From: an uncultured Sulfuricella sp. | GTDB taxonomy: Bacteria > Pseudomonadota > Gammaproteobacteria > Burkholderiales > Sulfuricellaceae | Length of the DNA: 64,000 nucleotides | Reading direction: 5' to 3' | Assembly: GCA_964505475.1 (NCBI GenBank) | Contig: CAZDIJ010000008.1 | Location: 381-64,380, forward strand | Shown here: in pieces, positions 1,350 through 17,045 of the stretch | How positions within the stretch are numbered: the stretch's first letter is position 1 | How the letters are laid out: each line of letters starts with the position of its first letter | Notes under the pieces: model-generated | Told to the model about the DNA's origin: nothing | The model's input: the letters and a program-made list of their open reading frames with translations, nothing else | Databases searched by the model: none | Position numbers and translations under genes: made by a program

Positions 1350-1371
1350 TACCCCCCAAGGAGAACCCGCC

Positions 1372-2441: not shown

Positions 2442-2465
2442 ATTGTATTTTTCAAGGAGAGCAAC

Positions 2466-2774: not shown

Positions 2775-2795
2775 TCGATTTATCGAATTTTTATC

Positions 2796-2969
2796 ATGCC
2801 TCTGAACCATTCTCAGTCGCCACGCCTTCCCTCGCTTGCGGGGGAAGGTTGGGATGGGGGCAAACACCGGCGGTTAAGCGGGCAAACGCCCCCTCCCCAA
2901 CCCTCCCCCGCACGCTACGCGCGCAAGGGAGGGCGTGCCTGCATAGGCTGAAAATAGTTCATAGGCATA
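2796..2969. mobile_element. MITE-like element, family A, full length
   Basis: Terminal inverted repeats ATGCCTCTGAACCATTCTCAG / CTGAAAATAGTTCATAGGCAT (18/21). The interior is a nested GC-rich palindrome. Flanked by ATTTTTATC / ATTTTTTAT, a degenerate 9-bp duplication. Confidence 0.75.
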
Positions 2970-2994
2970 ATTTTTTATTGAGAAAGGAAGCAAC

Positions 2995-3171
2995 ATGGAC
3001 GAAAACGTCGGTTACATCAATTTCGCCAGCGCCGAGGACGTGTCCCTGCACGCCCTGAAATTCGCCCGCGACGCGGAAAAAGGCCATCGCCAACTGGTGC
3101 AGTTGATCTTCGAATTGATGAAACAGCCCGAGCCTGGCAAGGCCGAACTGGAAAAGTTGCTCAAGCGCTGA
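2995..3171 (+). CDS. Hypothetical small helical protein (58 aa), nif-associated by position
   Basis: Not in the ORF track (<60 aa). ATG 2995 is preceded by AAGGAAG, and the third-position GC bias resembles neighbouring genes. Product: MDENVGYINFASAEDVSLHALKFARDAEKGHRQLVQLIFELMKQPEPGKAELEKLLKR. Possibly a Rop-like nif protein (unverified). Confidence 0.5.
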   Translation: MDENVGYINFASAEDVSLHALKFARDAEKGHRQLVQLIFELMKQPEPGKAELEKLLKR

Positions 3172-3199
3172 GCCGGACGAGGCGTCACCAAGGATGTCG

Positions 3200-3234
3200 C
3201 GGCGCGCGGAGAGCGGCACCACCTCCGCGCGCCG
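3200..3234 (+). terminator. Strong hairpin after the small ORF (possible terminator or attenuator)
   Basis: Perfect 12-bp GC stem (CGGCGCGCGGAG / CTCCGCGCGCCG) with an 11-nt loop. Only a weak, displaced T-run (GATTTTC) follows. Confidence 0.3.
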
Positions 3235-3276
3235 GCCATGTGATTTTCAAACAGCACCATCATAAGGAGAAAAGTC

Positions 3277-3648
3277 GTGAAGAAGCACAATATCGCAATC
3301 GTCGGTCTGGGGCGCGTCGGCTCGGTGTTCCTCAACGAACTGCTGGGCGAGAACGTCAGCGGCGTCAAGGTCGTGGCCGCCGTCGAAAAGGCCGAAACGC
3401 CCGCCAAGGCGGCTGCCGCCAAATCCCACGTCAAGGTTCTGTCCCTCGACGAACTGGTCGCCGAGGGCGACAAGATCGACGTGGTGTTCGACTTGAGCGG
3501 CGGCGCCAACGTCGCCGAGGAGCTGCACCGGAAATACGCCGCCAAGGGCAATCAGCACACCATCGTCGCCCCCGAGCGCATGGCGCACCTGATGCTGACC
3601 GTGATGGAAAACCAGAAGAACCTGCCGGACGTTCATCCGCAGCCGTAA
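3277..3648 (+). CDS. Small NAD(P)-binding Rossmann-like protein, function unknown
   Basis: GTG start after AAGGAGAA. The N-terminal IAIVGLGRVGS is a GxGxxG dinucleotide-binding motif. 123 aa, located between fdxB and nifQ. Confidence 0.6.
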   Translation: MKKHNIAIVGLGRVGSVFLNELLGENVSGVKVVAAVEKAETPAKAAAAKSHVKVLSLDELVAEGDKIDVVFDLSGGANVAEELHRKYAAKGNQHTIVAPERMAHLMLTVMENQKNLPDVHPQP

Positions 3649-3716
3649 TCGTAATCACCATCCCGCGCAGGCGCGGCCTCCCCGCCGCTCTGCGCCCCCT
3701 TGCCGGGAGCCGGAAC

Positions 3717-4259
3717 ATGAACCGCCAACAGATGTTGAATCAAGCCAACAACGCCGTCTCCGCCGCCACCCGCGCGCTCGCCTGGGTAATCAGCTCGGAG
3801 GAATACCGCCCGGCCATGCTGCGCGGCATCGCCACGGACGATTTCGACCGCCTGATGGAACGCTACTTTCCCGGAACCGGAACCGACCGCAAGGCATTGG
3901 CCAGCGGCTGCGCGCCGCTGCGCGACGACGAATTCCAGGACATCCTCGATTTACTGATGGAATACCGCGCCGACGACAGCGACGAAACGACATGGCTCGC
4001 CAACGCGGTGGCCGCCGCCTGCCTGGGCGGCAACCATTTGTGGCAAGACCTCGGCCTGGCCAACCGCCAGGAATTGTCCGGCCTGCTGCAAGCGAATTTC
4101 CCGCTGCTTTACGCCAGGAACACCGGCAACATGAAGTGGAAAAAGTTCTTCTACAAACAACTCTGCGAACGCGCCGAAGTGCAAGCCTGCCGCGCGCCGA
4201 GCTGCGCGGTGTGCGGCGACTATGCCGCCTGCTTCGGCGGCGAGGAAGCCGCCGCGTAA
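3717..4259 (+). CDS. nifQ: Nitrogen fixation (molybdenum processing) protein NifQ
   Basis: C-terminal CRAPSCAVCGDYAAC is the Cx4Cx2Cx5C NifQ signature. An internal ATG at 3717 of the long ORF 3240..4259 gives a typical NifQ length of ~180 aa. Confidence 0.8.
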   Translation: MNRQQMLNQANNAVSAATRALAWVISSEEYRPAMLRGIATDDFDRLMERYFPGTGTDRKALASGCAPLRDDEFQDILDLLMEYRADDSDETTWLANAVAAACLGGNHLWQDLGLANRQELSGLLQANFPLLYARNTGNMKWKKFFYKQLCERAEVQACRAPSCAVCGDYAACFGGEEAAA

Positions 4260-4490
4260 CCGTCCCGCCATCCGCGTCCGCACCGGACGCCCCCTCCGCC
4301 TCCGACAAGCATCGGCGGCCGGAGGAAAAAGTGCATAATTCATGGCAATTCTCTAAAATGGCTCCATGATCCCCATCCGCCACCGCGCCCCGGCTTGAAT
4401 TCACCATCAGGTTCCGTTTTCAAGTAGTCCGCGAATGGCTATTTGAAAACAAAATCTTAAGAAACCCACCGTATTTCCAGGAGAGGCACA

Positions 4491-5552
4491 ATGGATATCC
4501 ACAACAAACCGATCCAGCAGCGCATCGAATGGCTGATCGGGCACGCCGACCGGCACGCGGCGGCGTTTTGCAGCCCGGAGCAATACCTCGCGCGGGAACG
4601 CTACCTGGCCGAGCATCCCACCGCGATCACGGTGCTGAAGTGCATGGACGGACGCATCAACATCCCGGTCGCCACCAACACGCCGCCCGGCATCATCACG
4701 CCGATCCGCAACCTGGGCGGCCGTTTCGACCTGGGCTGGCCGCATCTCGGCGAGGTGCTGGCGCACCATGTGCACGAGCGGGTATCCGCCGGGCGGCGGA
4801 TGATGATGCTGATTACCTACCACTATTCCAAGGGCGACCCGCACCGCGGCTGCGCCGGTTTCAGCTACGACACCGAGGCGGCGAAGGCGCATACCTACGC
4901 CATCAAAAAGCAGGTCGAGCATGTCTTCGGCAGCGGCCACGGCACGGTCTACCCGATCGTCTGCGGCTTTGAAACCGACGAGGATGCACTGATCCTGCAT
5001 GGCAGCAACGGCGACAAGCTCGACATGTCGGCGCTGGAAGGAGAGAGTCCGGGCAAGCTGGAACAGCGCCTCGAAACGCTGTTCCCGGACATGCCCAATC
5101 AGGTGCTGCACGATCTGCTGCCGCTACTGCTGGGCAATATCGAGCATATCGCCGAGGTCAAGCAGATGCCCCGCACTCTCGACATCGAGCACCGCGAATG
5201 GATGATCTGCCTGGGGCGCGGCTTCGACTTCCTGCACATGCCCAACCTCGCCCTGATTATCGGCCCCTACAGTCCTGACTTGGCCGACCCGATCAGCAAG
5301 GCGGCGGGCATCATCCAGAGCAACATGAAGGCCGGGCGCATCCCGGACGACGGTTTCCTGCTGCTGACTTCGGTGCCCTATGCCGAGATCGGGGTGGATC
5401 GCGCCCGCGCCGAACTCAAGTCGCGCTTCCTGTCGCAATTCGCCGCCAATGTGATCCGCAGCGAATTTTCCGAACTGGCCGGAAAAATGTTCGTGCGCGC
5501 GGCGGTGCTCAACCCGCGTTCCCGCACCCTGGAGGAAATAGCGCTGGAATAG
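4491..5552 (+). CDS. Uncharacterised protein with collinear beta-carbonic-anhydrase-like motifs
   Basis: GGAGAGG RBS. Motifs in order: LKCMDGR (CxDxR), ITPIRNLGGR (compare the RNxGN motif) and HRGCAGF (HxxC). At 353 aa it is longer than classical beta-CAs. Assignment rests on motifs only. Confidence 0.45.
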   Translation: MDIHNKPIQQRIEWLIGHADRHAAAFCSPEQYLARERYLAEHPTAITVLKCMDGRINIPVATNTPPGIITPIRNLGGRFDLGWPHLGEVLAHHVHERVSAGRRMMMLITYHYSKGDPHRGCAGFSYDTEAAKAHTYAIKKQVEHVFGSGHGTVYPIVCGFETDEDALILHGSNGDKLDMSALEGESPGKLEQRLETLFPDMPNQVLHDLLPLLLGNIEHIAEVKQMPRTLDIEHREWMICLGRGFDFLHMPNLALIIGPYSPDLADPISKAAGIIQSNMKAGRIPDDGFLLLTSVPYAEIGVDRARAELKSRFLSQFAANVIRSEFSELAGKMFVRAAVLNPRSRTLEEIALE

Positions 5553-5556
5553 GCGC

Positions 5557-7038
5557 TTATCGCAGCCTGGCCACCCAGGCTTCCCCAGCCGGCTTGATGA
5601 CATCGAGAACGGCGGCGGGGTAGAAACCGACGGCCAGGACGATGGCCGTGGCGGCCAGGGCAATCGCCAGTTCGCGCGGACGCAGGTCGGCGGCGTCGGC
5701 AACCACCGGATTGGTGACCGGCCCGAAGAAACCACGGCGGTAAATCCCCAGGAAATAGGCGGCGCCGAGCACCATCGCGAACAAGGCGGCCAAGCCCGCG
5801 CCGGTGTGGGTGTTGAGGGCGGACAACAGGATCAGCAGTTCGGCCGGGAAGCCGCTGGTGCCCGGCAGCCCCATGGTTGCCAGCCCCAGCAGCAGGATGA
5901 AAGTGGCCAACAACGGCATGGAGCGCGCCGCGCCGCCCAGGCTGACGATGTCGGTGGAACCGACGCGATGATGCAGGAAGCCGGTCAGCAGGAACAAGCC
6001 GCCGGCCGCCATGGTGAAATTCAGCAGTTGCAGCACCGCCCCCTGCAAACCTTGCAGGTTGAAGGAACTCAATCCCAGCACCACCAGGCCGACATGGGAC
6101 AGGCTGGAATAGGCCAGCATCTGCCGCAGGTTGGTTTGCGCCAGCGCCGCCACCGCGCCGTACAGCACGGCCACGGTGCCCAGCCCGGCGAACAGCCAGT
6201 GCAGCTCGCGCGCCGCTTCCGGCGCCAGCGGCACGGCAAACCGGATCAGGCCGTAGGCGCCGAGCTTGAGGCCGACCAGCAACGCCGTCACCGCCACCGG
6301 ACCTTCCATCGTCATCACCGGCAGCCAGGTGTGCAAGGGAAACAATGGGGTCTTCACCGCGAAACCGAGCAGCAGCAGCAGGAAAATCATCCATTCGACC
6401 CCGCCCGGCGCCGGCGTGGCCAGCAACGACGGCAGGTCGAAAGCCAGACCCGCGCCGGTTTGCGCCGCGTGGCTGAAGGCCAGCATCAGAAAGCCGATCA
6501 GCAGGGGCACGCCGCCCGCCAGCATGACCAGCGTGTATTTCACCGCGGCATAGCGCCGGTTGGGACCGACTCCCCAAAGACTTACCAGGAAATACAAGGG
6601 CACCAGCGACAGTTCCCAGAACAGGAAGAACAGGATGGTGTCGAGCGAACAGAATATCCCCAGGGTGGTGGTTTCCATCAGCAACAGCAAGCTGTAGTAC
6701 AGGCGCGGCAAGGCATGCACGCTGTTCCACGAGGCCAGGATCACGCCGATGAAGAGTAGCACCGTGGCGGGCAGGAACAGCACCGAGATGCCGTCCACGC
6801 CGACCAGGTAATGGATGTTGAGGGTGGGTATCCAGTCGATTTTTTCCACCAGTTGAAAGCCGGGACGAGCCGGATCGAATTTCGCCACGATCGCCAGGGA
6901 AATCGCCAAGTCGATCAACGCCGTAACCAAGGCGACGCGGCGCGCCCATTCGGGGCGCGGCAGCAGCCAGGCGAGCGCGGCGCCCGCGGGAAGGGTGAGA
7001 AACAGCAGGCTGAGCAGGGGAAAAGCGGCGGCGTCCAT
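5557..7038 (-). CDS. NuoM/NuoN (NdhD)-type proton-translocating antiporter-like subunit, last gene of the DAB-like operon
   Basis: 493-aa polytopic protein with ..PLFPLHTWLPVMTMEGPVAVTALLVGLKLGAYGLIRF..AYSSLSHVG.., typical of the PF00361-type family. Its start lies 1 nt after the preceding stop. Confidence 0.8.
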   Translation of the reverse strand: MDAAAFPLLSLLFLTLPAGAALAWLLPRPEWARRVALVTALIDLAISLAIVAKFDPARPGFQLVEKIDWIPTLNIHYLVGVDGISVLFLPATVLLFIGVILASWNSVHALPRLYYSLLLLMETTTLGIFCSLDTILFFLFWELSLVPLYFLVSLWGVGPNRRYAAVKYTLVMLAGGVPLLIGFLMLAFSHAAQTGAGLAFDLPSLLATPAPGGVEWMIFLLLLLGFAVKTPLFPLHTWLPVMTMEGPVAVTALLVGLKLGAYGLIRFAVPLAPEAARELHWLFAGLGTVAVLYGAVAALAQTNLRQMLAYSSLSHVGLVVLGLSSFNLQGLQGAVLQLLNFTMAAGGLFLLTGFLHHRVGSTDIVSLGGAARSMPLLATFILLLGLATMGLPGTSGFPAELLILLSALNTHTGAGLAALFAMVLGAAYFLGIYRRGFFGPVTNPVVADAADLRPRELAIALAATAIVLAVGFYPAAVLDVIKPAGEAWVARLR

Positions 7039-7039
7039 G

Positions 7040-8551
7040 TCAATGATGTCCGAAATGCGCCGAGAGCGCTTGCAGCGAAGCCTCGACCAGTTTCATCCAG
7101 GGTTCGAGATAAAACCCGGTCACCAGCAGCACCGCCAGAATGCCGCCGGCCACCAGATATTCCATCGGCAAGGTGGCCTCGATCGTACCGGGCGGCCGCC
7201 ATTCCGGGCGCGGCGCCAGGAAGGCGCGCTGGAAGGCCCACAGCAGGAAGCCGGCGGTGACCACGTTACCCAGCGCGGCGGCCACGGTGGGCAGCGCGCC
7301 GAACTTGTCGATGGCCGCCTCCAGCACCAGATGCGCCGCGTCGAAGCCGGGGGTGCCGGGCATGCCGATGATGGAAAAGCCTCCGACCAGAAACGTCATG
7401 CTGAGGAAGGGAATGCGGTCGAACAACCCTCCCAGGCGATCGAGCGAAGTCGTGTGGGTGCGCCGGTAGACGAACCCGACCATGAACAGCAAGGCGGTGG
7501 CGGCCAGGCCGAAATTGACCGCGAGCAGGATGCCGCCCTGGAAGCCGGCGTGATGCAGGCTGAACAGGCCGATGGTAATCAGGCTGGTGTGGCTGACCAC
7601 GGCGAAGGCGATCAGGCGGCGCAAATCCTTTTGCAGGAAGGCGAGGAAGGCGGCGTAGAAAACTCCGGTGGCGGCGAAGGCGACCACATAGTTTTGCCAC
7701 TGGACGACGGCCTCCGGCACCAGCGGAAAAACGAAACGCACCAGCCCGTAGATGCCGACCTTGATGCCCAGCAGCAAAACCGGGGCGATGGCCACGTTGC
7801 CATGCTCGGCCATGAGCGGCAGCCAGCCGTGCATCGGAAACAGAGGGGTGCGGATCGCCAGGCCGTAGAACAGCAGGAAGAACACCACCGAGGACAGCGG
7901 GGCGGCGATGTGGATGGCCGCCAGATCGACCAGATCGAAGCTCCAGCGCCCCCCGGCGGCATCGGCATGGCTCCAGCCCGCCACCAGCACGCCGGCCAGC
8001 AACAATAGCAGCCCGGTGCCCTGGAACTGATAAAAACGCGCCAGCGCCAGGTCTTTTTCCGCCGAGGTGGCCCAGCGCCACAACAGATGCCCGACCAGGC
8101 CGATTTCGATGGCCGAGGCCAGCACGAACCAGAGCAGATTGGTGGTGGTGAGCAGGGAAATCAGCACGCCCTCGATGGCCAGCAAGATTCCGATCAGCCG
8201 GCTGGGTTCGCCGAGTCCGCGCACCAGGCCGTAAATGCTGAGCAGGAAGGCGAGCAACGCGGTGAGCAGCACGAACAGCACCGTCACGCCGTCGGCGGCG
8301 GCATGATAGCCGAACGGTCCGAAGAGATCGACCCGTTCGGCCAGTTGCAGCGCCGGGGAGCCGATGTCGATGCGGCGATAAAGCGTGGCGGCCAGCAGCA
8401 ATTCCGCCAACACCAGGAAGCGCCCCAAGATCACCGCGCCGCGCCGTTCCCCGAGCAGCAGCAGGGCGCCCGCGCCGAGCAGCGGAATGGCTTGCAGGGC
8501 GCCGAGCAACGGAAACCCGGACTGCTGCGCCCAGTGAATTTCAGTCATCAT
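7040..8551 (-). CDS. NuoM (NdhD)-type antiporter-like subunit
   Basis: 503 aa, ..TPLFPMHGWLPLMAEHGNVAIAPVLLLGIKVGIYGLVRF..AFAVVSHTS.. . Confidence 0.8.
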   Translation of the reverse strand: MMTEIHWAQQSGFPLLGALQAIPLLGAGALLLLGERRGAVILGRFLVLAELLLAATLYRRIDIGSPALQLAERVDLFGPFGYHAAADGVTVLFVLLTALLAFLLSIYGLVRGLGEPSRLIGILLAIEGVLISLLTTTNLLWFVLASAIEIGLVGHLLWRWATSAEKDLALARFYQFQGTGLLLLLAGVLVAGWSHADAAGGRWSFDLVDLAAIHIAAPLSSVVFFLLFYGLAIRTPLFPMHGWLPLMAEHGNVAIAPVLLLGIKVGIYGLVRFVFPLVPEAVVQWQNYVVAFAATGVFYAAFLAFLQKDLRRLIAFAVVSHTSLITIGLFSLHHAGFQGGILLAVNFGLAATALLFMVGFVYRRTHTTSLDRLGGLFDRIPFLSMTFLVGGFSIIGMPGTPGFDAAHLVLEAAIDKFGALPTVAAALGNVVTAGFLLWAFQRAFLAPRPEWRPPGTIEATLPMEYLVAGGILAVLLVTGFYLEPWMKLVEASLQALSAHFGHH

Positions 8552-8593
8552 CCTTGCAACCTCTGTTCACCGCGGCAAAAGGAAAATATGGGT

Positions 8594-10132
8594 TCATAGA
8601 ATCACCACGAAAGTCGCCATAATCAGCAGCAGCAGGTAGCGCGGCCGCTCCAGCAGGCTTTCCACGGACAGCAGATAGCCGCCCAGGAAGCCCAGGATGC
8701 GGCTGATCCGGCTGCCGCTTTCCTGCATTACCAGACGCCGCTCGAAGTCGTAAAAACGGTCGGCGCACCATTCCAGCATGGCGCCCGCCAAGCCCCGGCC
8801 ATGCACGATTTCGTCGCGGCCGCCGCGGGCGTCGGCGGCGGCGAGTCCCGCGCGGGCATCCTCGGGCATGCCCACCAGGCGGCTGACCACGCGGTCGTCG
8901 AGGTCGCGCATGTCGCGCGCCAGGCTTTGGGTGGGCTTCACCAGCAGCCAGTCGCCCAGCGCCTCCAGCCAGAAACGTTGCAGCGCCGCGGTGTAGAGCC
9001 GCTGGCGGCCGGCCAGCCAGCGCGGCGCCGGGCTGGCCGGATGGCCGGCGAGATGCATGTAGGAGGGCGAAGCGAGCATCTGCCAGGCGCGCCAGGCGGC
9101 GTGCAGCCCGAGATGCCAGGCGGCCAGGGTAAACAGGCCGAGGCCGCACTCCAGGAACATCAGGCCGACCTGGGCGGTGGTGGCGAAGATCAGGGTGCTT
9201 TTCACATCGGTCTGGGCGAGTCCGCCGAGGTAGCCGTACAGGGCGGTAAGCAGGCCGATGAAAGCGATCAGGCTCATCATCGCCGGCGCCTGGATCAGCA
9301 AGGGTTCGAGGCGCAGGGTCAGGTAGACGCCGGCATGCACCATCAGGGCGCCGTAGAAAATCGCGCTGGAGGGGGTCGGTCCCTCCAGCGCCCGGCCAAG
9401 CCAGGGCGAGAAGGGAACCTGCGCCGACTTGGCCAGCGCCGCGAGCATGAAGCCCAGCGCCAGCAGGCCGGCATACAGGGTTTCCAGCCGTCCCGGCGCG
9501 GTAATCCCTGGCCATTCGACCGTGCCCAGCCAGATCGCGGCGAGAGCGATGCCGAGGATGAATCCGGCGTCGCCGATGCGGTTGGTGACGAAAGCGCGCA
9601 GGGCGTTGCCGGTGGCGGTGGGGCGCTCGTAGGCGTAACCGATCAGCAGAAAGGAGCTGACCCCGGCCAGTTCCCAACCCGCGAAGGCCAGTACGGCGTT
9701 GCCGGAAAGCACGATCAGCAACATGCCGGCGCTGAACAGGCTCATCGCCAGGAAAAAGCGGTGAAAACCCGCCTCGCGGTGCAGGTAGTTGACCGAGAAG
9801 CGCAGGGTGACGAGGGCGATCGCCGCGACCAGGGTGGCGATCGGCAGGGACAAAGCATCCAGAGCGAAGGACAGCGGCACGGCGAAACTGCCGCTGCTGA
9901 ACCAGGTACCCACATGGACTTGGCCGGGAACACCCTGGTTGAGGGCAAGCAGATCCAGCGCCAGCAGATGCAGCAAGGCGAGCGCCGCGGCGCCGCTGGC
10001 CAGCCGGGCGGTAAGCGGCTCGGCCGCGTCGCCGGCGGCGCGCCCGGACAATACGCGCAGGGCGACGGCGGCGGCGGCCAGCAAAGGCAGCAACGGGATC
10101 AGCCAGACAAGCCGCACCAGCATATCCATCAT
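8594..10132 (-). CDS. dabB: NuoL (NdhF)-type antiporter-like subunit, candidate DabB
   Basis: ..AFAGWELAGVSSFLLIGYAYERP..NRIGDAGFILGI..SAQVPFSPWLGRALEGPTPSSAIFYGALMVHAGVYL.. . The start was chosen at the ATGATG that overlaps the dabA TGA (ATGA). The listed ORF start at 10261 would overlap dabA by 130 nt. Confidence 0.8.
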   Translation of the reverse strand: MMDMLVRLVWLIPLLPLLAAAAVALRVLSGRAAGDAAEPLTARLASGAAALALLHLLALDLLALNQGVPGQVHVGTWFSSGSFAVPLSFALDALSLPIATLVAAIALVTLRFSVNYLHREAGFHRFFLAMSLFSAGMLLIVLSGNAVLAFAGWELAGVSSFLLIGYAYERPTATGNALRAFVTNRIGDAGFILGIALAAIWLGTVEWPGITAPGRLETLYAGLLALGFMLAALAKSAQVPFSPWLGRALEGPTPSSAIFYGALMVHAGVYLTLRLEPLLIQAPAMMSLIAFIGLLTALYGYLGGLAQTDVKSTLIFATTAQVGLMFLECGLGLFTLAAWHLGLHAAWRAWQMLASPSYMHLAGHPASPAPRWLAGRQRLYTAALQRFWLEALGDWLLVKPTQSLARDMRDLDDRVVSRLVGMPEDARAGLAAADARGGRDEIVHGRGLAGAMLEWCADRFYDFERRLVMQESGSRISRILGFLGGYLLSVESLLERPRYLLLLIMATFVVIL

Positions 10133-13100
10133 GCCGCCTCCCCTTCTGGCTGGCTCCATGGCACCGGGCGGGTCAACAGCGCCGGCGTCAAAGGCTCGCG
10201 CTGGCCGGCGAACCAGTCGGCGGAACATTCCACCTCGGGCAAGCGCGCGCCGCCTTCCCATTCCAGCCAGCCGCGCGCCGGGTCGAAAAGATGAATGGCG
10301 GCGCTCTCCGGGTCCTTGGCGGCGACAATCAGCCAGCCGTTGCCGATCAACTCCTGCAACGGCGGCTGGCGCTGGTAGATGGCGGTGACGAGTTCGACGG
10401 TGTTTTCCACCACCACCAGCAGGCGCATCGCCTCATGGATCTCGATCATCTGGCGCGGCAGGCCGGTGCGCAGGTCGGAACCTGCGCCTTCCATGACGCC
10501 GAGCAGGCCGGTGACGTTGTGCAGTATCTTGGTGCCGCAGCCGTACTGCTCGTTGTTCACCGTGGAAAAATAGTATTCCAGGCTGATCCCCGCGCCCACC
10601 GGGCCGTTGGCCAGCAGCAGCCCTTCCAGCACCTTGCCATCGGGGTCCTCGGCCGGGTCGTAGGAAATCAGAAAGGAACGCCGGTCGAAGAAAGCGCCGC
10701 GGCTCAGGGAACGGCGGCCGATAAAGGCGCAGGCGTTGGTGGCATGCCCCAACTCGGGGCGCGCCTGGGAAAAATCGTAGCGGCGTCCGACGACATGGCG
10801 CAGAGCGCTGTCCTTGCCGATGCCGAGGGGGGCTGAGGCGAGGCGGCGGCAGCGTTCCTGGGCGTGGGCGCGGGAAGCCTCGGCCAATTCACGGTCGAGC
10901 TTGGCATGGGCGGCGCGCAGTTCCGCCGGGATGTCCTCCAGATCGTACCAAATCACCGAGTCGTCGCAGGTGTTGTGCTCCGCGCCGAGAAACCAGGCGC
11001 CCGGCGGAATGGCGATGCCGCGTTCGGCAAGCAGCGCGCGCACCTCGGGGCGGTTGGCCATGCCCGCGAACAGGCGGGCGTTGGGGCCGCTGTGGCGGCC
11101 GGAGCAGGCGCCGCAATCGTAGGCCGATAGATGCGGGTTGTTCTGGCTGTTGGAGCCGTGTCCCACGATCACCGCCAGCGGAGCGAAACGGCCGGTCAGC
11201 CCGATGTTGCGCAGAAAGGCTTGCACCCGGTCTGCCTGCTCGGCGTCGGTGAAACCGGAGGGGCGCGGCGCATCCGGCGTGGCCGGGGCGCTGCCGGCCG
11301 GCGCGGTGAATTCGATGCGGGTCGGCACGCTCAGATCGAAGGATTGGGCGAGCCGGGCGGCGAAGCGGCCGAGACGGCCGGGCAGCAGCATTTTCCCGGC
11401 CAGCACCGCCAGGGCGGCGGGCGCGGCGACGGCGGACAGCAGCGCCGGAACGAGCAGGCCGCGGCGCGTGCCCTGGTGCAGCGTTTCCCGCCACTTCAGG
11501 CGCCGCGCCAGCCGCCGCCGATGCCGGGCGAAAAGCTCCTCGCTGCCGCCCCGCGGCAGTTCGCGCACTTCGTGGGCGGGCTTGGCCACCACCGGGCACA
11601 GCACGGTCGGCGCGTCATCGTCCAGGCCGTACCAGTTGATGAAAACGCTGAAATGGGCGGCCGCGCCGAAGGTTTCGAGGCGGGGATTGATTTCTTCGAG
11701 ATGGCGGCGCATCCCTTCCTCGCGGTCGTCCATGCAGAACACCAACTGCGCTTCGGGATCGGGATTCGCCGGACAGCGCGCGTGATTGGCGGCGACGGCG
11801 GCGAATATCTGCTCGCGGTAGTGGCGCTCGTAGGCATTCAGCCAGACGTAGCCGGTCTGGTCGGCGTCGAGGCGGGACAGGCCGCCGAGCAGCTTTTCCG
11901 CGCCGGCGCGGCCGATCGCGCGGATCTCGCCGCCGCGCAAGGCGAGGTGCTGGGCGAGAAGGAACAACGGCCAGGCGCTGCCGGCCACGCTGGCGCCGCC
12001 GCGCCGGTCGGCGGCGGGAGTCTGGCGCCATGCCCACAACAGCCCGGCCAAGCGGCGCCAGGCAGCCTCATCGACCGTTTCCCGGCGCTGCACGGCTTCC
12101 TGCACCTGGCGCTGCGCCAGGCTCACCAGGTACTCGGGCAGGCGCCCTTCAAACAGGGCGTGGCGCACCACCAATTCCTCGGCGTGGTGGCGGAAATGCC
12201 AGCGCAACACGTCGAGGCTGGCTTCGATGCGCCAATGGCGGCGGCACAGACGCTGGGAAAAAATCCGTTCCAGCACCAGTCTGACCGCGAGGAAGTCCAA
12301 CATTTCCACCGGCGTTCCCAGTCCGGCATGGCCGGGATGGTCATGGCGCCACAGCACCATGCCGAACCAGCCGGGAATTTCCAGGGCGAGCCGCTCCAGA
12401 TAGCCCGCCCAGCGCGCCTCGGGCAGGCCGAGCAGGCCGAGTTCCTGGACGATGGCGTCGAGTGAATCGCCGGGCAGGCGCTCCAAATGGGTTTTCCATT
12501 CCGGCAAGTCGGCGAAGACCCACGCCAGGTCGCTGGCGGCGCTCGCGCGCCAGGCCGCGTAGAAACCTTGCGGACGGCTGGGGTTGTGCCAGGCGGCCAG
12601 CCCCTGGTCGAGGTGGGAGGCGATATGGCGGATCAGCAGCGGGCGCAGTTCGTCGAGCAGGTCCTCGCCGGTAAGCGCGCGCAGCAGGGAACGCAACGTC
12701 CACGCTCCGCCCAGGCGCTCCAGCAGATCGTCCAGCAGCCGGTGGGCTTCCTCGCCGATCTGGAGGGCGACCGAAGGCTGTTCCGCCGCGCTGGCGAGCG
12801 CCGCGGTTTCTCCCGGATCGGAGGAAGGCTCCAGGAGTTCCTCGGGATGCAGCGAGGCATGTTCCAGCCCCAGCGTTTCGACGCAGGCCGCCCACAACTC
12901 TCCGACCGCCGCGGCTTCCCCGGCGTCGCCCAGCAGGCGGCTTCTCGCCTCTTCGGCGACATTGGGCTGAAAAGCGCAAAGGGCGCGGTTTTCCTCTACC
13001 TGCCATTTGAGCTGGCTGCGGGACAGGTGCTTGACCGGGTAAAGCAGCGAGGCGAGCGCCACCTCGCCCAGGGTAACCGTCCGGCCGGGCGCGCGCGCCA

Positions 13101-13401
13101 ACTCGGCGGCGGTGTCGAGACCGGATGCCTCGCGCAGCGCGGACTCCAGATCGGCTCGGCTGATCCTGCCCTGGGCGTAAAATTCGCGGAAGCGTTCTTC
13201 CGGCAGGTAGGCGCTGGCGCCGGTCAATTGGCGTGCGGCGGAAACCGCCTGGGTAAAGTGCAGGTGCTGGTAGCCGTGCAGGGTGTTGTGATGGACGAAA
13301 TCCTTGATCGGCGCCTGCGCCGGCAGCACGTGCTCGAGGCGGTGCGCCAGGTTGCGCAGTTGTTCGCGGATATCGCCGGAATGGTGTGAATCGCCGCTCA
13401 T
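10129..13401 (-). CDS. dabA: DUF2309 protein, candidate inorganic-carbon pump subunit DabA
   Basis: 1090 aa. N-terminal ..PIKDFVHHNTLHGYQHL.., FCMDDREE (CxDxR) and VGHGSNSQNNPHLSAYDCGACSG are the recalled DabA/UPF0753 zinc-site hallmarks. Located immediately upstream of a NuoL-like gene. Confidence 0.85.
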   Translation of the reverse strand: MSGDSHHSGDIREQLRNLAHRLEHVLPAQAPIKDFVHHNTLHGYQHLHFTQAVSAARQLTGASAYLPEERFREFYAQGRISRADLESALREASGLDTAAELARAPGRTVTLGEVALASLLYPVKHLSRSQLKWQVEENRALCAFQPNVAEEARSRLLGDAGEAAAVGELWAACVETLGLEHASLHPEELLEPSSDPGETAALASAAEQPSVALQIGEEAHRLLDDLLERLGGAWTLRSLLRALTGEDLLDELRPLLIRHIASHLDQGLAAWHNPSRPQGFYAAWRASAASDLAWVFADLPEWKTHLERLPGDSLDAIVQELGLLGLPEARWAGYLERLALEIPGWFGMVLWRHDHPGHAGLGTPVEMLDFLAVRLVLERIFSQRLCRRHWRIEASLDVLRWHFRHHAEELVVRHALFEGRLPEYLVSLAQRQVQEAVQRRETVDEAAWRRLAGLLWAWRQTPAADRRGGASVAGSAWPLFLLAQHLALRGGEIRAIGRAGAEKLLGGLSRLDADQTGYVWLNAYERHYREQIFAAVAANHARCPANPDPEAQLVFCMDDREEGMRRHLEEINPRLETFGAAAHFSVFINWYGLDDDAPTVLCPVVAKPAHEVRELPRGGSEELFARHRRRLARRLKWRETLHQGTRRGLLVPALLSAVAAPAALAVLAGKMLLPGRLGRFAARLAQSFDLSVPTRIEFTAPAGSAPATPDAPRPSGFTDAEQADRVQAFLRNIGLTGRFAPLAVIVGHGSNSQNNPHLSAYDCGACSGRHSGPNARLFAGMANRPEVRALLAERGIAIPPGAWFLGAEHNTCDDSVIWYDLEDIPAELRAAHAKLDRELAEASRAHAQERCRRLASAPLGIGKDSALRHVVGRRYDFSQARPELGHATNACAFIGRRSLSRGAFFDRRSFLISYDPAEDPDGKVLEGLLLANGPVGAGISLEYYFSTVNNEQYGCGTKILHNVTGLLGVMEGAGSDLRTGLPRQMIEIHEAMRLLVVVENTVELVTAIYQRQPPLQELIGNGWLIVAAKDPESAAIHLFDPARGWLEWEGGARLPEVECSADWFAGQREPLTPALLTRPVPWSQPEGEAA

Positions 13402-13402
13402 C

Positions 13403-14851
13403 TCAGAATAGCTGGCTCAATTGGTTGATCGAGGCCGTCATCAGATGCAGCGCCGGCGCGGGGAAAAAACCGATCGCCAGGATGCCGGCGGAGAGAACGC
13501 CGGCGGCGGCCAACTCGGTGCGCGTCAGATCGGGGACGTGACGCATGTTTTCGCGCACCGGACCGGTGAACAGGCGGCCGATGGTGCGGATGCCGTAGGC
13601 GGCGCTAATCAGCACGCCCAGGGAAAGCAGCGCCACCCAGCCGCCCCAGCGGGCAAAGCCGCCGACCAGGGCATGCAATTCGGCGATGAAGCTGGCGGTG
13701 CCGGGAAAACCGATGGCGGCGACGAAGGCCAGCACCGTGAAGAAGGCGAAGCGCGGCATGACGCGCACCAGCGAGCTGTAGTCGGCGATGTCGCGGGTGT
13801 GGGTACGGTCGTAAAGCAGGCCGATGAGCAGGAACAGGGCGCCGGCCACCAGGCCGTGGGCGATCATCTGCATCACCGCGCCGGTGAAGCCGGCGGCATT
13901 GAGCGCGGCGATACCGAGCAATACCACCCCCATGTGGCTGACCGAGGAATAGGCGACCATGCCCTTGAGATCGCGCTGGCGCCAGGCCAGCACGCCACCG
14001 TAGATCAGGCTGACCAGGGCGAGGGCGGCAAGCCAGCCCTGGAGGGCGACCACAGCGGCCGGCAGCATTTCGGCCGAGCGGATCAGGCCGTAGGAACCCA
14101 TCTTCAGCAGTATCCCGGAAAGCAGGATGGAAACCGGGCTGGGCGCTTCGACGTGCGCCAGGGGCAGCCAGCCGTGCAGGGGGAAAATCGGCATCTTGAC
14201 GCCGAAGCCGATCAGCAGGCCGATGAACAGCAGTATCTGGATGTTTTCCGGCAGTTTCGCGGCGCCGTGGGCGATCAGCACCATGTCGAAACTGTGGCCG
14301 GGCGCCGCGTCATAGATCATGAGCAGGGCAACCAGCATGAAAACCGCGCCGCCCATGGTGTACAACACGAAGTTGAGCGCCGCGCGGTGGCGGTTCTCGC
14401 CGCCCCAGCGGTCGATCAGGAAGAACAGCGGAATCAGGGTGAGTTCCCAGAACACGTAGAACAGCGACCAGTCGCGCGCCATGAAGACGCCGAGCATGGC
14501 CGATTCCAGCAGCAGGATCAGAAAATAATACCCCTTGATCCCCTCGCGGATGACGCTGGAAGCGAGGATCGCCACCACGGTGAGCAGGGTGGCGAGCAGC
14601 ACCATCGGATAGGAAATGCCGTCCACCCCAAGCGAGAAGGCGCTGCCCAGGCGGGGATTCCAGACATGGGTTTCGAACATCTGGATACCCGGCTGGGAAG
14701 CGTCGAACTGGGTGAGCAGCCCCCATGCCATGACGAAGGCGACGCCGCCGGCCAGCAGGGCGACCAGCCGTATCAGGCGCGGTCTGGCGGCGGGCAGCAG
14801 GGCGATGAGCAGGGCGCCGAAAACCGGGGCAAGCAGCAATACTCTCAACAT
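13403..14851 (-). CDS. NuoM (NdhD)-type antiporter-like subunit, first gene of the DAB-like block
   Basis: 482 aa, ..MPIFPLHGWLPLAHVEAPSPVSILLSGILLKMGSYGLIR..AYSSVSHMG.. . Its stop lies 1 nt before the dabA ATG. Confidence 0.8.
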   Translation of the reverse strand: MLRVLLLAPVFGALLIALLPAARPRLIRLVALLAGGVAFVMAWGLLTQFDASQPGIQMFETHVWNPRLGSAFSLGVDGISYPMVLLATLLTVVAILASSVIREGIKGYYFLILLLESAMLGVFMARDWSLFYVFWELTLIPLFFLIDRWGGENRHRAALNFVLYTMGGAVFMLVALLMIYDAAPGHSFDMVLIAHGAAKLPENIQILLFIGLLIGFGVKMPIFPLHGWLPLAHVEAPSPVSILLSGILLKMGSYGLIRSAEMLPAAVVALQGWLAALALVSLIYGGVLAWRQRDLKGMVAYSSVSHMGVVLLGIAALNAAGFTGAVMQMIAHGLVAGALFLLIGLLYDRTHTRDIADYSSLVRVMPRFAFFTVLAFVAAIGFPGTASFIAELHALVGGFARWGGWVALLSLGVLISAAYGIRTIGRLFTGPVRENMRHVPDLTRTELAAAGVLSAGILAIGFFPAPALHLMTASINQLSQLF

Positions 14852-14930
14852 GGGGTAATGAAAATAGTCCTAGGCTTGGCCGCGAGACGGCACGGAATAC
14901 TTCCTTCCGCCGCGCGGCATGACGGAAACA

Positions 14931-17045
14931 TCAAGGCCGGCGCAGCGGGCAGAAGGCGCCCTCGGTCGCATCATAACCCATGCACATGTAAATGGCATCC
15001 AGCGCCATGTCTTCGTTGGGGAAGATGTTGTCCTGGGTGATCTTGTCGAACAGGCCGGTGTGGCGCATCACGTCGATCACCTGCTTCTTCAGGCCGCTGA
15101 ACACCATGGTGATGTCGTTTTCCTTCAAGCGCTCCACCAGGTGATGGATGACCTCCTCGCCGGAGGCATCGAGTTGGTTGATGCCGTCGCCCACCACCAG
15201 CAGGAACTTGGCGTTGGGTTTGTGGGCGGCCGCCTCGAGAATGGCGTCCTCGAAGAATGGCACATTGGCGAAATAGAGCGAGCCGTCGAAACGCATGACG
15301 ATGATGTTTTCATCGGTCGGCAAATCGGGATGCACGCTCAGGTCGCGCAAGGTGCCGTCGTGATAGCGGCCAAGCTGGGCGACGCGCGGCTGCATGGTGC
15401 GGTACAGGTAGAGGATGATGGCCAGCCCGGCGCCCGCCATGATGCCGTTGTCGAGATGCGGAGCGAAGGCGAGCGTGGCGACAAAAGTGACCACCGAAGC
15501 GACGCCGTCGTGCTTGTGGGCGTGCCAGGCATGCTTGATCGCCTTGAAGTTGACCAGCCCGACCACCGCCATCATGATTACCGCGGCCAGCACCGCCTGC
15601 GGCAGATGGTAGAGCAGCGGGGTGAGGAACAGCAGGGTAACCAGCACGATCAGGCCGGTGAATACCGAGGACATGCCGGTCTTGGCGCCGGCGTTCATGT
15701 TGACCGCGGAACGCGAGAACGACCCGGAAACCGGGAAGGCCTGGCTCAAACTGCCGACGATGTTGGCGATGCCCTGGCCGACCAGTTCCTTGCTTGGATC
15801 GAGGCGCTGCTTGGTCTTGGCGGCGATGGCCTTGGCGATGGAAATGGCTTCCATGAAGCCGACCAGCGAAATCACCAGGGCGCTGCCGAGCAGAGCCATG
15901 ACGTTATCCCAGCCCAGCTTCGGCATTTGCATGTCGGGCAGACCGGAGGGAATGCCGCCGACCACGTCGCCGCCGCCGGAAAGGCTCAGCTCGCCTTCCT
16001 TCACCTTCTTGATGCGCCAGCGGTGGCCGTCGGTATCGACCCCCTTGGGCGCATGGTTCTTCAGGTAAAGGCGTGCCGGCTCCTCGCTGCTGGCCGGCGC
16101 CATGTCGAGGATGAACTTGCGCATGGTGCGCGCCGCCTTGCGTTTTTCGTCCTCGACATCCTTGAGCGTGCCCTGGAGCAGTTCGATCTCATAGTGCAGG
16201 GCGGCGACCAGGCGGTCATCCTCTTCCGGCTCCTTTTCCAGCTTTTTGATGCGCGCCAGCCGGGAAGTGATCTGCTTGTTGATGGAGGCGACGCGCGCCT
16301 CGTTGAACCACGCCAGTTCGATGACTTCGCGCACCTCGCTGTCCATGACCTGCTCGACCTTGACCTTGGCGGTCTGCTCGAAGCCGATCGCCCAGCTCAC
16401 CACCGTGGTGAGCGCCACGGCGATCAGCACCCCCGGCAGCCTGGGCAGGTATTTTTTCAGCCCCCACATGATGGCGAAGGCGGCCACCCCCATGAGCAGC
16501 GTGGGAATATGGGTATCGCCGATCTGTTGCAACACCCCCCAGATGTCGTTGACGAAGTGTTCGCTGCGCCCCATCGACACCCCGAAAATCTTGTTGAGCT
16601 GCGACAGTCCGATGATGATGGCGGCGGCGTTGGTGAAACCGACGATGACCGGGTGAGAGAGAAAGTTGACGATCACCCCCAGCTTGAACAGCCCGAGCAG
16701 CAACTGGATGCAGCCGACCAGCAAGGCCAGCAGGATGGCCAGGGCGATGAACTGCTCCGAGCCGAGCGCGGCAAGGGGCGCCAACGCCGACGCGGTCAGC
16801 AGCGACACCACCGCCACCGGGCCGGTGGCGAGCTGGGACGACGACCCCCACATGGCGGCGATCATCACCGGCAGGAACGAGGCATAAAGCCCGTAATAGG
16901 CCGGCAGCCCGGCCAACTGGGCATAAGCCATGGACTGGGGAATCAGCACCAGCGCCACGGTAATGCCAGCGATCAAATCGGCCTTGACGGCATCGCCGCG
17001 CAACGGGAACCACTTGAGAAACGGAAACAGATTATGGATAGACAT
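14931..17045 (-). CDS. SulP-family anion transporter with C-terminal STAS domain and a large internal insertion
   Basis: N-terminal ..DLIAGITVALVLIPQSMAYAQLAGLP..GPVAVVSLL.. is SulP-type. The C-terminal ~120 aa are STAS-like (..IIVMRFDGSLYFANV..). A ~135-aa charged, coiled-coil-like segment (residues ~225-360) interrupts the membrane domain. Confidence 0.85.
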   Translation of the reverse strand: MSIHNLFPFLKWFPLRGDAVKADLIAGITVALVLIPQSMAYAQLAGLPAYYGLYASFLPVMIAAMWGSSSQLATGPVAVVSLLTASALAPLAALGSEQFIALAILLALLVGCIQLLLGLFKLGVIVNFLSHPVIVGFTNAAAIIIGLSQLNKIFGVSMGRSEHFVNDIWGVLQQIGDTHIPTLLMGVAAFAIMWGLKKYLPRLPGVLIAVALTTVVSWAIGFEQTAKVKVEQVMDSEVREVIELAWFNEARVASINKQITSRLARIKKLEKEPEEDDRLVAALHYEIELLQGTLKDVEDEKRKAARTMRKFILDMAPASSEEPARLYLKNHAPKGVDTDGHRWRIKKVKEGELSLSGGGDVVGGIPSGLPDMQMPKLGWDNVMALLGSALVISLVGFMEAISIAKAIAAKTKQRLDPSKELVGQGIANIVGSLSQAFPVSGSFSRSAVNMNAGAKTGMSSVFTGLIVLVTLLFLTPLLYHLPQAVLAAVIMMAVVGLVNFKAIKHAWHAHKHDGVASVVTFVATLAFAPHLDNGIMAGAGLAIILYLYRTMQPRVAQLGRYHDGTLRDLSVHPDLPTDENIIVMRFDGSLYFANVPFFEDAILEAAAHKPNAKFLLVVGDGINQLDASGEEVIHHLVERLKENDITMVFSGLKKQVIDVMRHTGLFDKITQDNIFPNEDMALDAIYMCMGYDATEGAFCPLRRP

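Follow-up and report, generated by a model that had tools for sequence, protein, structure and literature searches.

A compact CsoSCA2-type carbonic anhydrase homologue beside a DAB-type operon and a SulP gene in an uncultured Sulfuricella

The locus and its 3′ junction

The window, that is, the whole stretch of 64,000 nucleotides analysed here from an uncultured Sulfuricella sp. (contig CAZDIJ010000008.1), carries on its plus strand a gene for a protein of 353 residues, assigned below to the CsoSCA2 family, whose neighbours are nifQ and a convergent five-gene DAB operon followed by a transporter gene. The features of this region are the following.

4479..4483, plus strand: Shine-Dalgarno sequence AGGAG, 7 nt 5′ of the CsoSCA2 ATG, read directly from the sequence
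4491..5552, plus strand: CsoSCA2 gene, ATG start, 353 aa, TAG stop (open reading frame list)
5553..5556: gap GCGC of 4 bp between the convergent stops (CsoSCA2 TAG and DAB-operon TAA)
5557..14851, minus strand: convergent five-gene DAB-type operon, M-DabA-L-M-M (Pfam families on called genes)
13403-14851, minus strand: NuoM-like gene, first in transcription order (Pfam)
10129-13401, minus strand: DabA gene, second (E 6e-238)
8594-10261, minus strand: NuoL-like gene, third (Pfam)
7040-8551, minus strand: NuoM-like gene, fourth (Pfam)
5557-7038, minus strand: NuoM-like gene, fifth and last (Pfam)
14931..17045, minus strand: SulP-family transporter gene, 5′ of the DAB operon (open reading frame; a recurring part of the island)

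The open reading frame, its motifs and the distance of 4 bp between the stops, as given in the preliminary description, were all confirmed on the sequence, with the TAG of the CsoSCA2 gene at 5550-5552 (plus strand) facing the TAA of the last DAB-operon gene, written TTA, at 5557-5559 (minus strand). The claim that no terminator lies between the stops also holds, as the terminator scan and the folding of the junction gave none in the 4-bp gap; terminator-like sites were not enriched in 4200-5800 (2 found against 1.8 expected from shuffles), and the folding of the 3′ junction does not exceed that of shuffles (z = -1.27), so that the idea of a bidirectional terminator there was dropped. In the 231-bp spacer 5′ of the gene, no sigma-54 or sigma-70 promoter was found, the scan returning one weak intragenic site, and a TGGC-N-GAAAA stretch in this spacer, inspected by eye, was discarded as a sigma-54 site because its -24/-12 spacing does not fit. 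The translated DabA shows both a CxDxR motif (FCMDDR) and an H-x14-C pair (GHG...DCGAC).

Family assignment and predicted active site

Sequence and structural model assign the 353-aa protein to the compact variant of CsoSCA2, the non-carboxysomal homologue of CsoSCA, the beta-class carbonic anhydrase (CA) of alpha-carboxysomes. The family was named by Sutter, Kerfeld and Scott (2022, Front Microbiol 13:872708, PMC9164163), with Sulfuricella among the described carriers, so that the protein, not recognised as a named family in the preliminary description, does have one, and what is new here is another member of a known family. Its homologues comprise more than 2,300 sequences in about 530 clusters at 50% identity, and NCBI labels family members as 'carboxysome shell carbonic anhydrase domain-containing protein'. 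The protein scores 27.2 bits against the Pfam model PF20686 (CsoSCA_cat), above the cut-off of 21.5, and this is its sole CsoSCA match in Pfam, PF20687 and PF08936 not being matched; the equivalog model of carboxysomal CsoSCA, TIGR02701, gives 40.7 bits, below its cut-off of 241. PF00484 (Pro_CA) is not matched even at E up to 10, nor is PF10070 (DabA) matched.

The two comparisons suggested at the outset, by profile and by predicted structure, converge on CsoSCA. A search of PDB sequences with the protein returned matches to CsoSCA only, and the family profile matches the CsoSCA structures 8THM (E 1.2e-14) and 2FGY (E 1.6e-14), with a weak match to the COS hydrolase 3VQJ (E 0.005) in the CxDxR region. 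The AF2 model (pLDDT 94, pTM 0.90) has CsoSCA as all of its top five Foldseek matches (E 6e-16 to 6e-15, query TM 0.75-0.77; best 8THM, E 6e-16, TM 0.77), followed by other beta-CAs, which bears out the proposal that this is a beta-CA-type protein. Alignment with genuine carboxysomal CsoSCA by hhalign extends over 294 columns with a probability of 96% and begins at CsoSCA residue 188. The domains and predicted active-site residues map as follows.

4512..4613, plus strand: N-terminal segment, residues 8-41, helices H8-26 and H29-41 (DSSP on the AF2 model)
4623..5165, plus strand: catalytic beta-CA domain, about residues 45-225, with the predicted zinc ligands and the Asp-Arg dyad D53/R55
4641-4643, 4821-4823 and 4851-4853, plus strand: codons of the predicted zinc ligands C51, H111 and C121 (CsoSCA alignment)
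5190..5198, plus strand: H234-R-E236, aligned with His397 and Glu399 of HnCsoSCA (2FGY alignment, hhalign)
5202..5549, plus strand: C-terminal second (pseudo-CA, 'defunct') domain, residues 238-353 (Foldseek and hhalign alignments)

In the model, the first catalytic strand lies at residues 45-51, and the two-helix N-terminal segment stands in for the Rubisco-binding N-terminal domain (about 144 aa) of carboxysomal CsoSCA, as the hhalign alignment also indicates. The motifs LKCMDGR (residues 49-55), ITPIRNLGGR (69-78) and ITYHYSKGDPHRGCAGF (108-124) are present, and by alignment C51, D53, R55, H111, C121, H234 and E236 correspond to Cys173, Asp175, Arg177, His242, Cys253, His397 and Glu399 of the Halothiobacillus CsoSCA. 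All seven are invariant in 36 family representatives with no more than 29-60% identity to the query, and the motif set is thus not a matter of chance. The zinc motif needs correction with respect to the preliminary description, which read it as HxxC: H118 of 'HRGC' varies within the family, whereas H111 is invariant, and the pair is thus H111...C121, an H-x9-C of the CsoSCA type. In HnCsoSCA, a role as proton shuttle has been proposed for His397, and both it and Glu399 are regulatory active-site residues (PMC13684180; preprint 10.64898/2026.04.02.716132). About 80% of CsoSCA have a vicinal Cys-Cys redox switch, and CsoSCA is inactive when both cysteines are changed to Ala (preprint 10.64898/2026.04.02.716132). 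The switch has no counterpart here, as it aligns with G147-S148 (hhalign); with Gly-Ser in the place where CsoSCA needs the Cys pair, CA activity cannot be taken for granted.

The protein shows no essential difference from the compact CsoSCA2 described in PMC9164163, sharing with it a length of about 350 aa, an N-terminus of some 40 residues in two helices, a non-carboxysomal locus, an active and a defunct domain with shortened loops, and all active-site residues of CsoSCA. With CsoSCA itself (CsoS3, the 'epsilon' CA; PDB 2FGY, 8THM, 9G4T) it has in common the two-domain fold, the Cys/His/Cys zinc ligands with H-x9/10-C spacing, the Asp-Arg dyad and the equivalents of His397 and Glu399, but it is only about 20% identical, has shorter loops and carries neither the CsoSCA_N Rubisco-binding domain nor the Cys-Cys switch. 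The closest structural relative reported for DabA (PF10070) is CsoSCA (PMC13684180). DabA likewise has a zinc site of beta-CA origin, with CxDxR and a His...Cys pair, and a role in inorganic-carbon supply; it differs in its size (about 830-1,100 aa), its binding to the membrane subunit DabB, its buried active site and the Leu that vectorial DabA has at the His397 position (PMC13684180), where CsoSCA2 keeps the invariant His234. The canonical beta-CAs (PF00484; E. coli Can, CcaA) share the core fold, the CxDxR and the following RNxG segment, whereas in CsoSCA2 nine residues instead of two separate the zinc His and Cys, and a fused degenerate second domain takes the place of the dimer partner. 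Weak matches to these enzymes, by profile and by fold, rank behind those to CsoSCA.

Gene neighbourhoods and co-occurrence

The host genome, 99.9% complete, encodes a RuBisCO large subunit, one DabA and a separate canonical beta-CA, and neither a BMC shell domain nor a RuBisCO small subunit was found in it; the CsoSCA2 gene is encoded outside any carboxysome locus, in contrast to carboxysomal CsoSCA with its co-encoded shell proteins, CsoS2 and form IA RuBisCO.

The suggested tie to the DAB/SulP island is sustained by the relatives, as an M-DabA-L-M-M operon stands beside CsoSCA2 in 39 of the 98 informative related loci (those with enough flank, found with single-protein queries and not independent samples), and SulP recurs. 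Genes in these loci were called with the CsoSCA2 gene fixed as seed and with a GC3 weight. The pairing, still present where protein identity has fallen to 42%, takes three gene orders: convergent, the commonest order outside Nitrosomonadaceae, with the operon directly convergent on the CsoSCA2 gene in 14 of 69 close loci; co-directional, as M-DabA-L-M-M-CsoSCA2 with gaps of about 60 bp, in 21 loci of Nitrosomonadaceae; and divergent, in one locus (L076). On the tree of CsoSCA2, linkage to DAB requires 8 changes of state and is therefore spread over the family. Among convergent loci the stop-to-stop gap ranges from -56 to +596 bp, so that the 3′ overlap is not conserved; together with the co-directional gene of Nitrosomonadaceae, this speaks against the reciprocal regulation by convergent transcription that had been put forward being a conserved feature. 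Homologues of the SulP gene (43-84% identity) occupy the same cluster end in L001, L027, L038, L049, L057, L068 and L128 and adjoin an Ehr-type module in L004, L006, L007 and L061, the position in related loci being either the far cluster end or next to CsoSCA2.

The Ehr-type module, with NuoL/H/M/CD/B genes, is operonic with CsoSCA2, which then directly follows the NuoB-like gene, or convergent with it in 14 loci, and Sulfuricella genomes differ in whether DAB or Ehr lies between the SulP and CsoSCA2 genes, which are the same in either case. Most CsoSCA2 genes do not adjoin a DAB operon, and just under half of the informative loci lack both modules in their vicinity. The gene lies between sulfate-assimilation and rRNA-methylase genes in about 20 loci of Accumulibacter, with DabA elsewhere in the genome, and beside nadE and glnB in Polaromonas-type loci, and it is without such neighbours in Desulfurispirillum and in a Parcubacteria genome. 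The carriers include many sulfur oxidisers (Sulfuricella, Sulfuricaulis, Thiodiazotropha), ammonia oxidisers, Accumulibacter, Desulfurispirillum and Parcubacteria. A link with nif genes was rejected, as nifN/X/Q queries match none of 80 related loci and the upstream neighbours are not conserved. The description of CsoSCA2 in PMC9164163 makes no link to M-DabA-L-M-M, SulP or Ehr, 'DAB' appearing in its reference list only.

At the level of whole genomes, the expected co-occurrence with dabA is weak, and it is in physical adjacency that the association shows. In an even class sample with DabA in 104 of 401 genomes (26% background among those lacking CsoSCA2), DabA occurs in 3 of the 7 CsoSCA2 genomes and in 101 of the 394 others; conversely, 4 of these 7 lack DabA, and 101 of the 104 DabA genomes lack CsoSCA2. 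Of the three genomes that encode both, two have the five-gene operon converging on CsoSCA2, and the other carries a DabA of the DAB1 type at a distance of about 9 kb. CsoSCA2 would accordingly be an accessory to such pumps and is not an obligate subunit, being co-operonic with DAB in Nitrosomonadaceae only and not obligately co-occurring with DabA. A general need of Ehr complexes for CsoSCA2 was likewise rejected, since in a sample of 400 genomes about 48 have Ehr-CD-like genes, of which just 3 also encode CsoSCA2.

Proposed role in carbon supply

The reading favoured here, with somewhat better than even confidence, is that the protein is a soluble cytoplasmic zinc CA that works with the SulP and DAB pumps as a carboxysome-free carbon-supply module. 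The membrane DAB complex would use an ion gradient to drive the irreversible hydration of incoming CO2 to HCO3-, SulP may add HCO3- uptake, and CsoSCA2 would interconvert CO2 and HCO3- reversibly in the cytoplasm, turning pumped bicarbonate into CO2 for an unencapsulated RuBisCO (probably form II) and balancing the CO2/HCO3- supply against the demand of the carboxylase. The whole would form a two-component module without a carboxysome, similar to that built artificially by Flamholz et al. 2022 and proposed as a pre-carboxysome stage.

A CA that is free in the cytosol next to an energised CO2 pump would contradict the classical cyanobacterial rule, according to which a CA in the cytosol collapses the bicarbonate pool. 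The premise of the preliminary description that a free CA must short-circuit the DAB pump is, however, weakened by experiment, as DAB2 and a cytosolic CA expressed together did no harm, Rubisco-dependent E. coli growing in air and C. necator being improved (PMC9894237). The natural pairing of DAB and CsoSCA2 fits this observation that a pump and a CA can support Rubisco-dependent growth without a carboxysome. Natural clusters of pump and CA are found in carboxysome-less nitrifiers, sulfur oxidisers and lucinid-clam symbionts, and they would be suited to asking by what means autotrophs that lack a compartment enrich carbon, and whether a CsoSCA2-like enzyme was the ancestor of the carboxysomal CA; the gain from the present gene, one more member of CsoSCA2, is modest.

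The two systems may instead be alternatives, brought together only in a 'toolkit' island and each expressed at its own time, the CA when CO2 is plentiful and the pump when it is scarce, with switching in this genome possibly running through colliding convergent transcription. This is rather unlikely, although CA and DAB/MpsAB are mutually replaceable in CA-free E. coli and C. necator (PMC9894237; see also PMC8552792), the genes converge here with 4 bp between the stops and no terminator, and convergent order is the commonest outside Nitrosomonadaceae: in the 21 loci of that family the CA gene is read in the same direction as the pump genes and lies behind them at a distance that implies co-transcription, the variable gap elsewhere shows that the overlap is not conserved, and the canonical beta-CA of the genome could already do the housekeeping. 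Physical attachment is another conceivable arrangement, in which CsoSCA2 would be a peripheral CA module of complex-I-like assemblies (the four-antiporter DAB here, the Ehr type in sister genomes), analogous to CupA/B on cyanobacterial NDH-1 or to the gamma-CA of plant complex I. The operons with DAB in Nitrosomonadaceae, the 14 loci with an Ehr-type module, the shared SulP and CsoSCA2 flanks across Sulfuricella genomes and the structural kinship of CsoSCA and DabA are in its favour, but it is very unlikely in view of the many loci with neither module, of the scarcity of CsoSCA2 (only 7 sampled genomes) relative to Ehr-CD-like genes and DabA, and of a model that is compact and soluble, with no transmembrane or docking extensions.

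Some beta-CA-fold enzymes of sulfur bacteria hydrolyse COS or CS2, and the protein could accordingly act in vivo as a COS/CS2 hydrolase, or as a CO2/bicarbonate-binding regulator, rather than as a CA. The many sulfur oxidisers among the carriers, the weak match to 3VQJ and the absence of the Cys pair on which CsoSCA activity depends point in this direction; nevertheless, the carriers extend to ammonia oxidisers, Accumulibacter, Desulfurispirillum and Parcubacteria, the genes conserved around CsoSCA2 are those of inorganic carbon and not of sulfur, and the match to 3VQJ is limited to a motif common to all beta-CAs. The sensor role that had been considered earlier finds no signalling or DNA-binding domain to act through, and the full catalytic set, including the proton-shuttle His, is retained. 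A function other than that of a CA is thus highly improbable, and the soluble CA of a carboxysome-free module remains the preferred interpretation.

An extension of this preferred interpretation, speculative and quite unlikely as it stands, would treat SulP, a complex-I-type antiporter machine and CsoSCA2 as a modular island for concentrating carbon without a carboxysome, with DAB and the cofactor-less Ehr as interchangeable engines. If this is true, the enigmatic Ehr complexes would have a first function, in energised CO2/HCO3- handling, with CsoSCA2 as the CA module in analogy to cyanobacterial NDH-1/CupA, and the pair of DAB and CsoSCA2 would be a living example of the pre-carboxysome stage in the evolution of CO2-concentrating mechanisms. 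The suggestion derives from the sister Sulfuricella genomes, which carry one or the other machine between the same SulP and CsoSCA2 genes.

Identity, fold and active site of the window protein

The preliminary description regarded the 353-aa product as a beta-carbonic-anhydrase-like protein of no recognised named family. [quoted passage not shown] The protein scores 27.2 bits with Pfam PF20686 (CsoSCA_cat; gathering score 21.5), and the meaningful matches in a PDB sequence search were CsoSCA entries only (8THM, 2FGY, 9G4T, 9SK*). Members are numerous and closely conserved: 2,326 homologues were found with E <= 1e-3, most of about 353 aa and 70-80% identical, from Beta- and Gammaproteobacteria, some already labelled 'carboxysome shell carbonic anhydrase domain-containing protein', and the result of an exhaustive search, clustered at 50% identity, comprised 530 clusters. 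When 36 representatives (29-60% identity to the window protein) were aligned, 13 columns proved invariant, including C51, D53, R55, H111, C121, H234 and E236, and the profile of this alignment, compared with structures, matched CsoSCA (E 1.2e-14 to 7e-14) and next, weakly, canonical beta-CAs. The AlphaFold2 model, with 51 homologues as input, is confident (pLDDT 94, pTM 0.90); in it, two N-terminal helices (8-26 and 29-41) precede the catalytic domain, which is followed by a second domain at the C-terminus. With this model, Foldseek placed five CsoSCA chains at the top (E 6e-16 to 6e-15, TMq 0.75-0.77), and below them a two-domain Porphyridium beta-CA and ordinary beta-CAs. The published compact CsoSCA2 variant has an N-terminal domain of about 40 residues, predicted to form two helices, shortened loops, an active and a defunct domain, and all the catalytic residues (PMC9164163); every sequence-level feature of it is found in the window protein, which on this basis is assigned to the compact variant. 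Sulfuricella is among the carriers reported there, the enzymes being said to 'have yet to be studied' (PMC9164163), and the sole later paper using the name found in our literature search takes CsoSCA2 sequences as an outgroup.

The likeness to the carboxysomal enzyme resides in this fold, the zinc ligands, the Asp-Arg pair and the equivalents of His397 and Glu399. In alignment with Halothiobacillus CsoSCA (2FGY chain positions are shifted by 28 relative to native numbering), C51, D53 and R55 fall on Cys173, Asp175 and Arg177, H111 and C121 on His242 and Cys253, and H234 and E236 on His397 and Glu399; because of this alignment and their invariance, C51, H111 and C121 are the predicted zinc ligands. 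H118, the zinc histidine of the 'HxxC' proposed earlier, varies among family members and is no ligand. The differences are the lack of a CsoSCA_N domain, a score far under the cut-off of TIGR02701, the NCBIfam equivalog of the carboxysome enzyme (40.7 against 241 bits), and the absence of the vicinal Cys-Cys pair, the redox switch of carboxysomal CsoSCA, which falls on G147-S148 in alignments to 2FGY and to the genuine CsoSCA of another genome, G195. CsoSCA is reported to be inactive if reduced, as is its Cys-to-Ala variant (2026 preprint 10.64898/2026.04.02.716132). H234 occupies the position of the proposed proton-shuttle histidine, which is leucine in the vectorial enzyme DabA (PMC13684180); since it is invariant in the CsoSCA2 alignment, CsoSCA2 appears to be an ordinary reversible CA, not a gated one.

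The gene, its 3' junction and the host genome

Gene calls and Pfam families give the order nifQ, CsoSCA2 and, on the other strand, Proton_antipo_M, Proton_antipo_M, Proton_antipo_N+M, DabA and Proton_antipo_M, the last five forming the DAB-type operon M-DabA-L-M-M. The junction is composed of the following elements:

7 nt 5' of the CsoSCA2 ATG, plus strand: ribosome-binding site AGGAG, read in the sequence
4491..5552, plus strand: CsoSCA2 ORF, ATG start, 353 aa
5550-5552, plus strand: TAG, stop of CsoSCA2
5557-5559, minus strand: TTA, stop codon of the final gene in the adjoining DAB operon

The spacer between the two stops is GCGC, with no terminator-like element in this gap; from 4200 to 5800 terminator-like sites have the same frequency as in shuffled sequence, and the predicted fold of the 3' junction is no more stable than those of its shuffled versions (z = -1.27). 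Sequence reading and the terminator scan therefore confirm the ORF, the convergent stops 4 bp apart, the terminator-free gap and the motifs quoted in the preliminary description (LKCMDGR, residues 49-55; ITPIRNLGGR, residues 69-78; ITYHYSKGDPHRGCAGF, residues 108-124); the observation is real, and its core interpretation of the protein is right. The translated window DabA retains a CxDxR and His...Cys site of its own. For the NuoL-like gene (8594-10261), the public call (cf. L085:5763-7301) places the start 43 codons into the longest ORF (512 vs 555 aa), the long form giving a 133-bp overlap with dabA and the short form a 4-bp ATGA-type overlap. Upstream, a spacer of 231 bp separates CsoSCA2 from the nif cluster at 48-4259 (nifN, nifX, a 164-aa ORF, fdxB, two small ORFs, nifQ).

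In the window's assembly (3.25 Mb, 99.9% complete) no BMC shell domain, no alpha-CA and no Ehr-type module were found; it has one canonical beta-CA and a single DabA, inside the window. The RuBisCO large-subunit sequence is split over two contig ends (G000:C111:2-715 and G000:C5:76111-76308), and because no small subunit was found in the genome the enzyme is probably of form II. The split and the missing subunit together suggest form II or else an assembly gap at the cbb locus.

Genomic neighbours of CsoSCA2

The 80 closest genomic loci (CsoSCA2 69-80% identity) were fetched and searched with the window's neighbouring proteins. None of the 80 matched the nif proteins, and the upstream context is therefore particular to the window's genome. 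Of these loci, 69 have at least 1.5 kb of sequence downstream of CsoSCA2, and in 14 of the 69 a complete M-DabA-L-M-M operon and CsoSCA2 run directly towards each other. Several Candidatus Thiodiazotropha symbionts are among the carriers, as are Sulfuricella, Rhodocyclaceae and unclassified Beta- and Gammaproteobacteria. Beyond these 14, the operon lies 8 kb away in locus L047 and is divergent in L076. In at least seven related loci a SulP homologue of the window transporter is located at the far end of the DAB operon; in others it stands directly beside CsoSCA2. This recurrence bears out the suspected tie to the DAB/SulP island. The convergent overlap, proposed as a regulatory feature, is not conserved: stop-to-stop distances range from -56 to +596 bp, so the 4-bp spacing of the window is not a conserved feature, and the Nitrosomonas and Nitrosospira genes are co-directional. 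In Nitrosomonas oligotropha the homologue (45% identity) is the last gene of the M-DabA-L-M-M operon, on the same strand, and a scan with it found 21 Nitrosomonas and Nitrosospira loci arranged as M1-DabA-L-M2-M3-CsoSCA2, the genes being about 60 bp apart.

Neighbourhood assigned per locus in the FastTree set of CsoSCA2 sequences (n=113)
DAB co-directional: 21 loci
DAB convergent: 16 loci
DAB divergent: 1 locus
DAB about 9 kb away: 1 locus
Ehr-type module: 14 loci
Other context: 45 loci
Flank too short for assignment: 15 loci

On this tree, whose counted loci are interrelated and not independent, the DAB-linked state needs 8 changes; the conserved linkage is thus dispersed through the family and not limited to one clade.

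The second recurring neighbour is a six-gene complex-I-like module (NuoL-, NuoH-, NuoM-, NuoCD- and NuoB-like proteins and one protein without family), on which CsoSCA2 converges, or of which it is the last gene, in 12 of 80 close loci and two of seven class-sample genomes. Since the NuoCD-like subunit is without the four NiFe-binding cysteines and the NuoB-like subunit keeps its cluster cysteines, the module is classed, on sequence, as an Ehr-type complex. Three Sulfuricella MAGs (L004, L006, L007) carry SulP (71-74% to the window's), the Ehr module and CsoSCA2 (77-78%), a cassette swap in which the module occupies the position of M-DabA-L-M-M in the window (4491-17045) and L001; CsoSCA2, Ehr and DAB stand in a row in L047. 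In Sulfuricaulis-like and other genomes (L015:1380-6227, L050:7723-9366, L124 (G113:C1), L014, L016), CsoSCA2 follows the NuoB-like gene on the same strand, 40-110 bp downstream, and apparently closes the Ehr operon. Ehr-CD-like genes occur in about 48 of 400 sampled genomes, far more commonly than CsoSCA2, so any functional tie between the two would be facultative.

An even class sample of 401 genomes has CsoSCA2 in 7 and DabA in 104. Co-occurrence with dabA, suggested earlier as a check, is weak at genome level: only three of the seven CsoSCA2 genomes have DabA. Two of those three, the window's genome and G346, have the five-gene operon in convergent orientation to CsoSCA2, whose counterpart in the third, G195, adjoins a complete carboxysome/DAB1 locus. 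There (L127, G195:C89:176000-195900) the distance from CsoSCA2 (64% identity) to a genuine carboxysomal csoS2-csoSCA pair is about 3.6 kb; ahead of that pair stand a LysR gene and a DAB1-type set of DabB, a small ORF and DabA, so the locus has both CA types. Accumulibacter has both genes, widely separated, with CsoSCA2 between cysN/D/H and an rRNA methylase gene; nadE and glnB adjoin it in Polaromonas-type loci, and no related neighbours surround it in Desulfurispirillum and one Parcubacteria genome. From these non-DAB contexts and the sparse co-occurrence, CsoSCA2 is a free-standing enzyme repeatedly kept beside inorganic-carbon machinery and no obligate subunit.

A predicted free CA beside an energised CO2 pump

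CsoSCA2, as a predicted active cytosolic CA, would work with the SulP/DAB island. An old objection, also the premise of the preliminary description, is that a free CA short-circuits a bicarbonate pump. This premise is weakened by the results of Flamholz et al. (PMC9894237), where neither E. coli nor C. necator was harmed by DAB2 together with a cytosolic CA, and the combination enabled Rubisco-dependent E. coli to grow in air; in their model, moderate co-expression makes pumping cheaper and brings the supplies of CO2 and HCO3- into balance, and a pump plus cytosolic CA is proposed as a step preceding the rise of carboxysomes. By analogy, the clusters described here and, in nitrifiers that lack carboxysomes, the co-transcribed DAB-CsoSCA2 operons rather probably represent a natural pre-carboxysome pump-plus-CA state.

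Alternation of CsoSCA2 and DAB instead of cooperation seems unlikely. Physical docking of CsoSCA2, as a CA module, on DAB or Ehr complexes is still more doubtful, adjacency to both standing beside the many other contexts of a free-standing enzyme; and it is least probable that the protein serves not as a CA but as a sensor or as a COS/CS2 hydrolase. Our literature search found no paper tying CsoSCA2 to DAB operons, SulP or Ehr modules; the CA genes beside formate hydrogenlyase/dehydrogenase genes in Wood-Ljungdahl organisms (Scott and colleagues, 2024 minireview) are a different juxtaposition. The interest is family-wide, in the role of a free CsoSCA-type CA beside an energised CO2 pump without carboxysomes, and not in the window copy itself.

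Two minor observations concern individual loci. In three Rhodocyclaceae loci (L029:11243-11644, with matching ORFs in L065 and L069) the CsoSCA2-DAB gap of about 570 bp is taken up by a conserved ORF, about 123-133 aa long, which contains an internal repeat (…SARR-AH-L-GN-Y…), and tandem CsoSCA2 duplicates occur at L106:10025-12245, L116:7752-9938 and L118:10010-12185, the second copy being 35-44% identical to the window protein.
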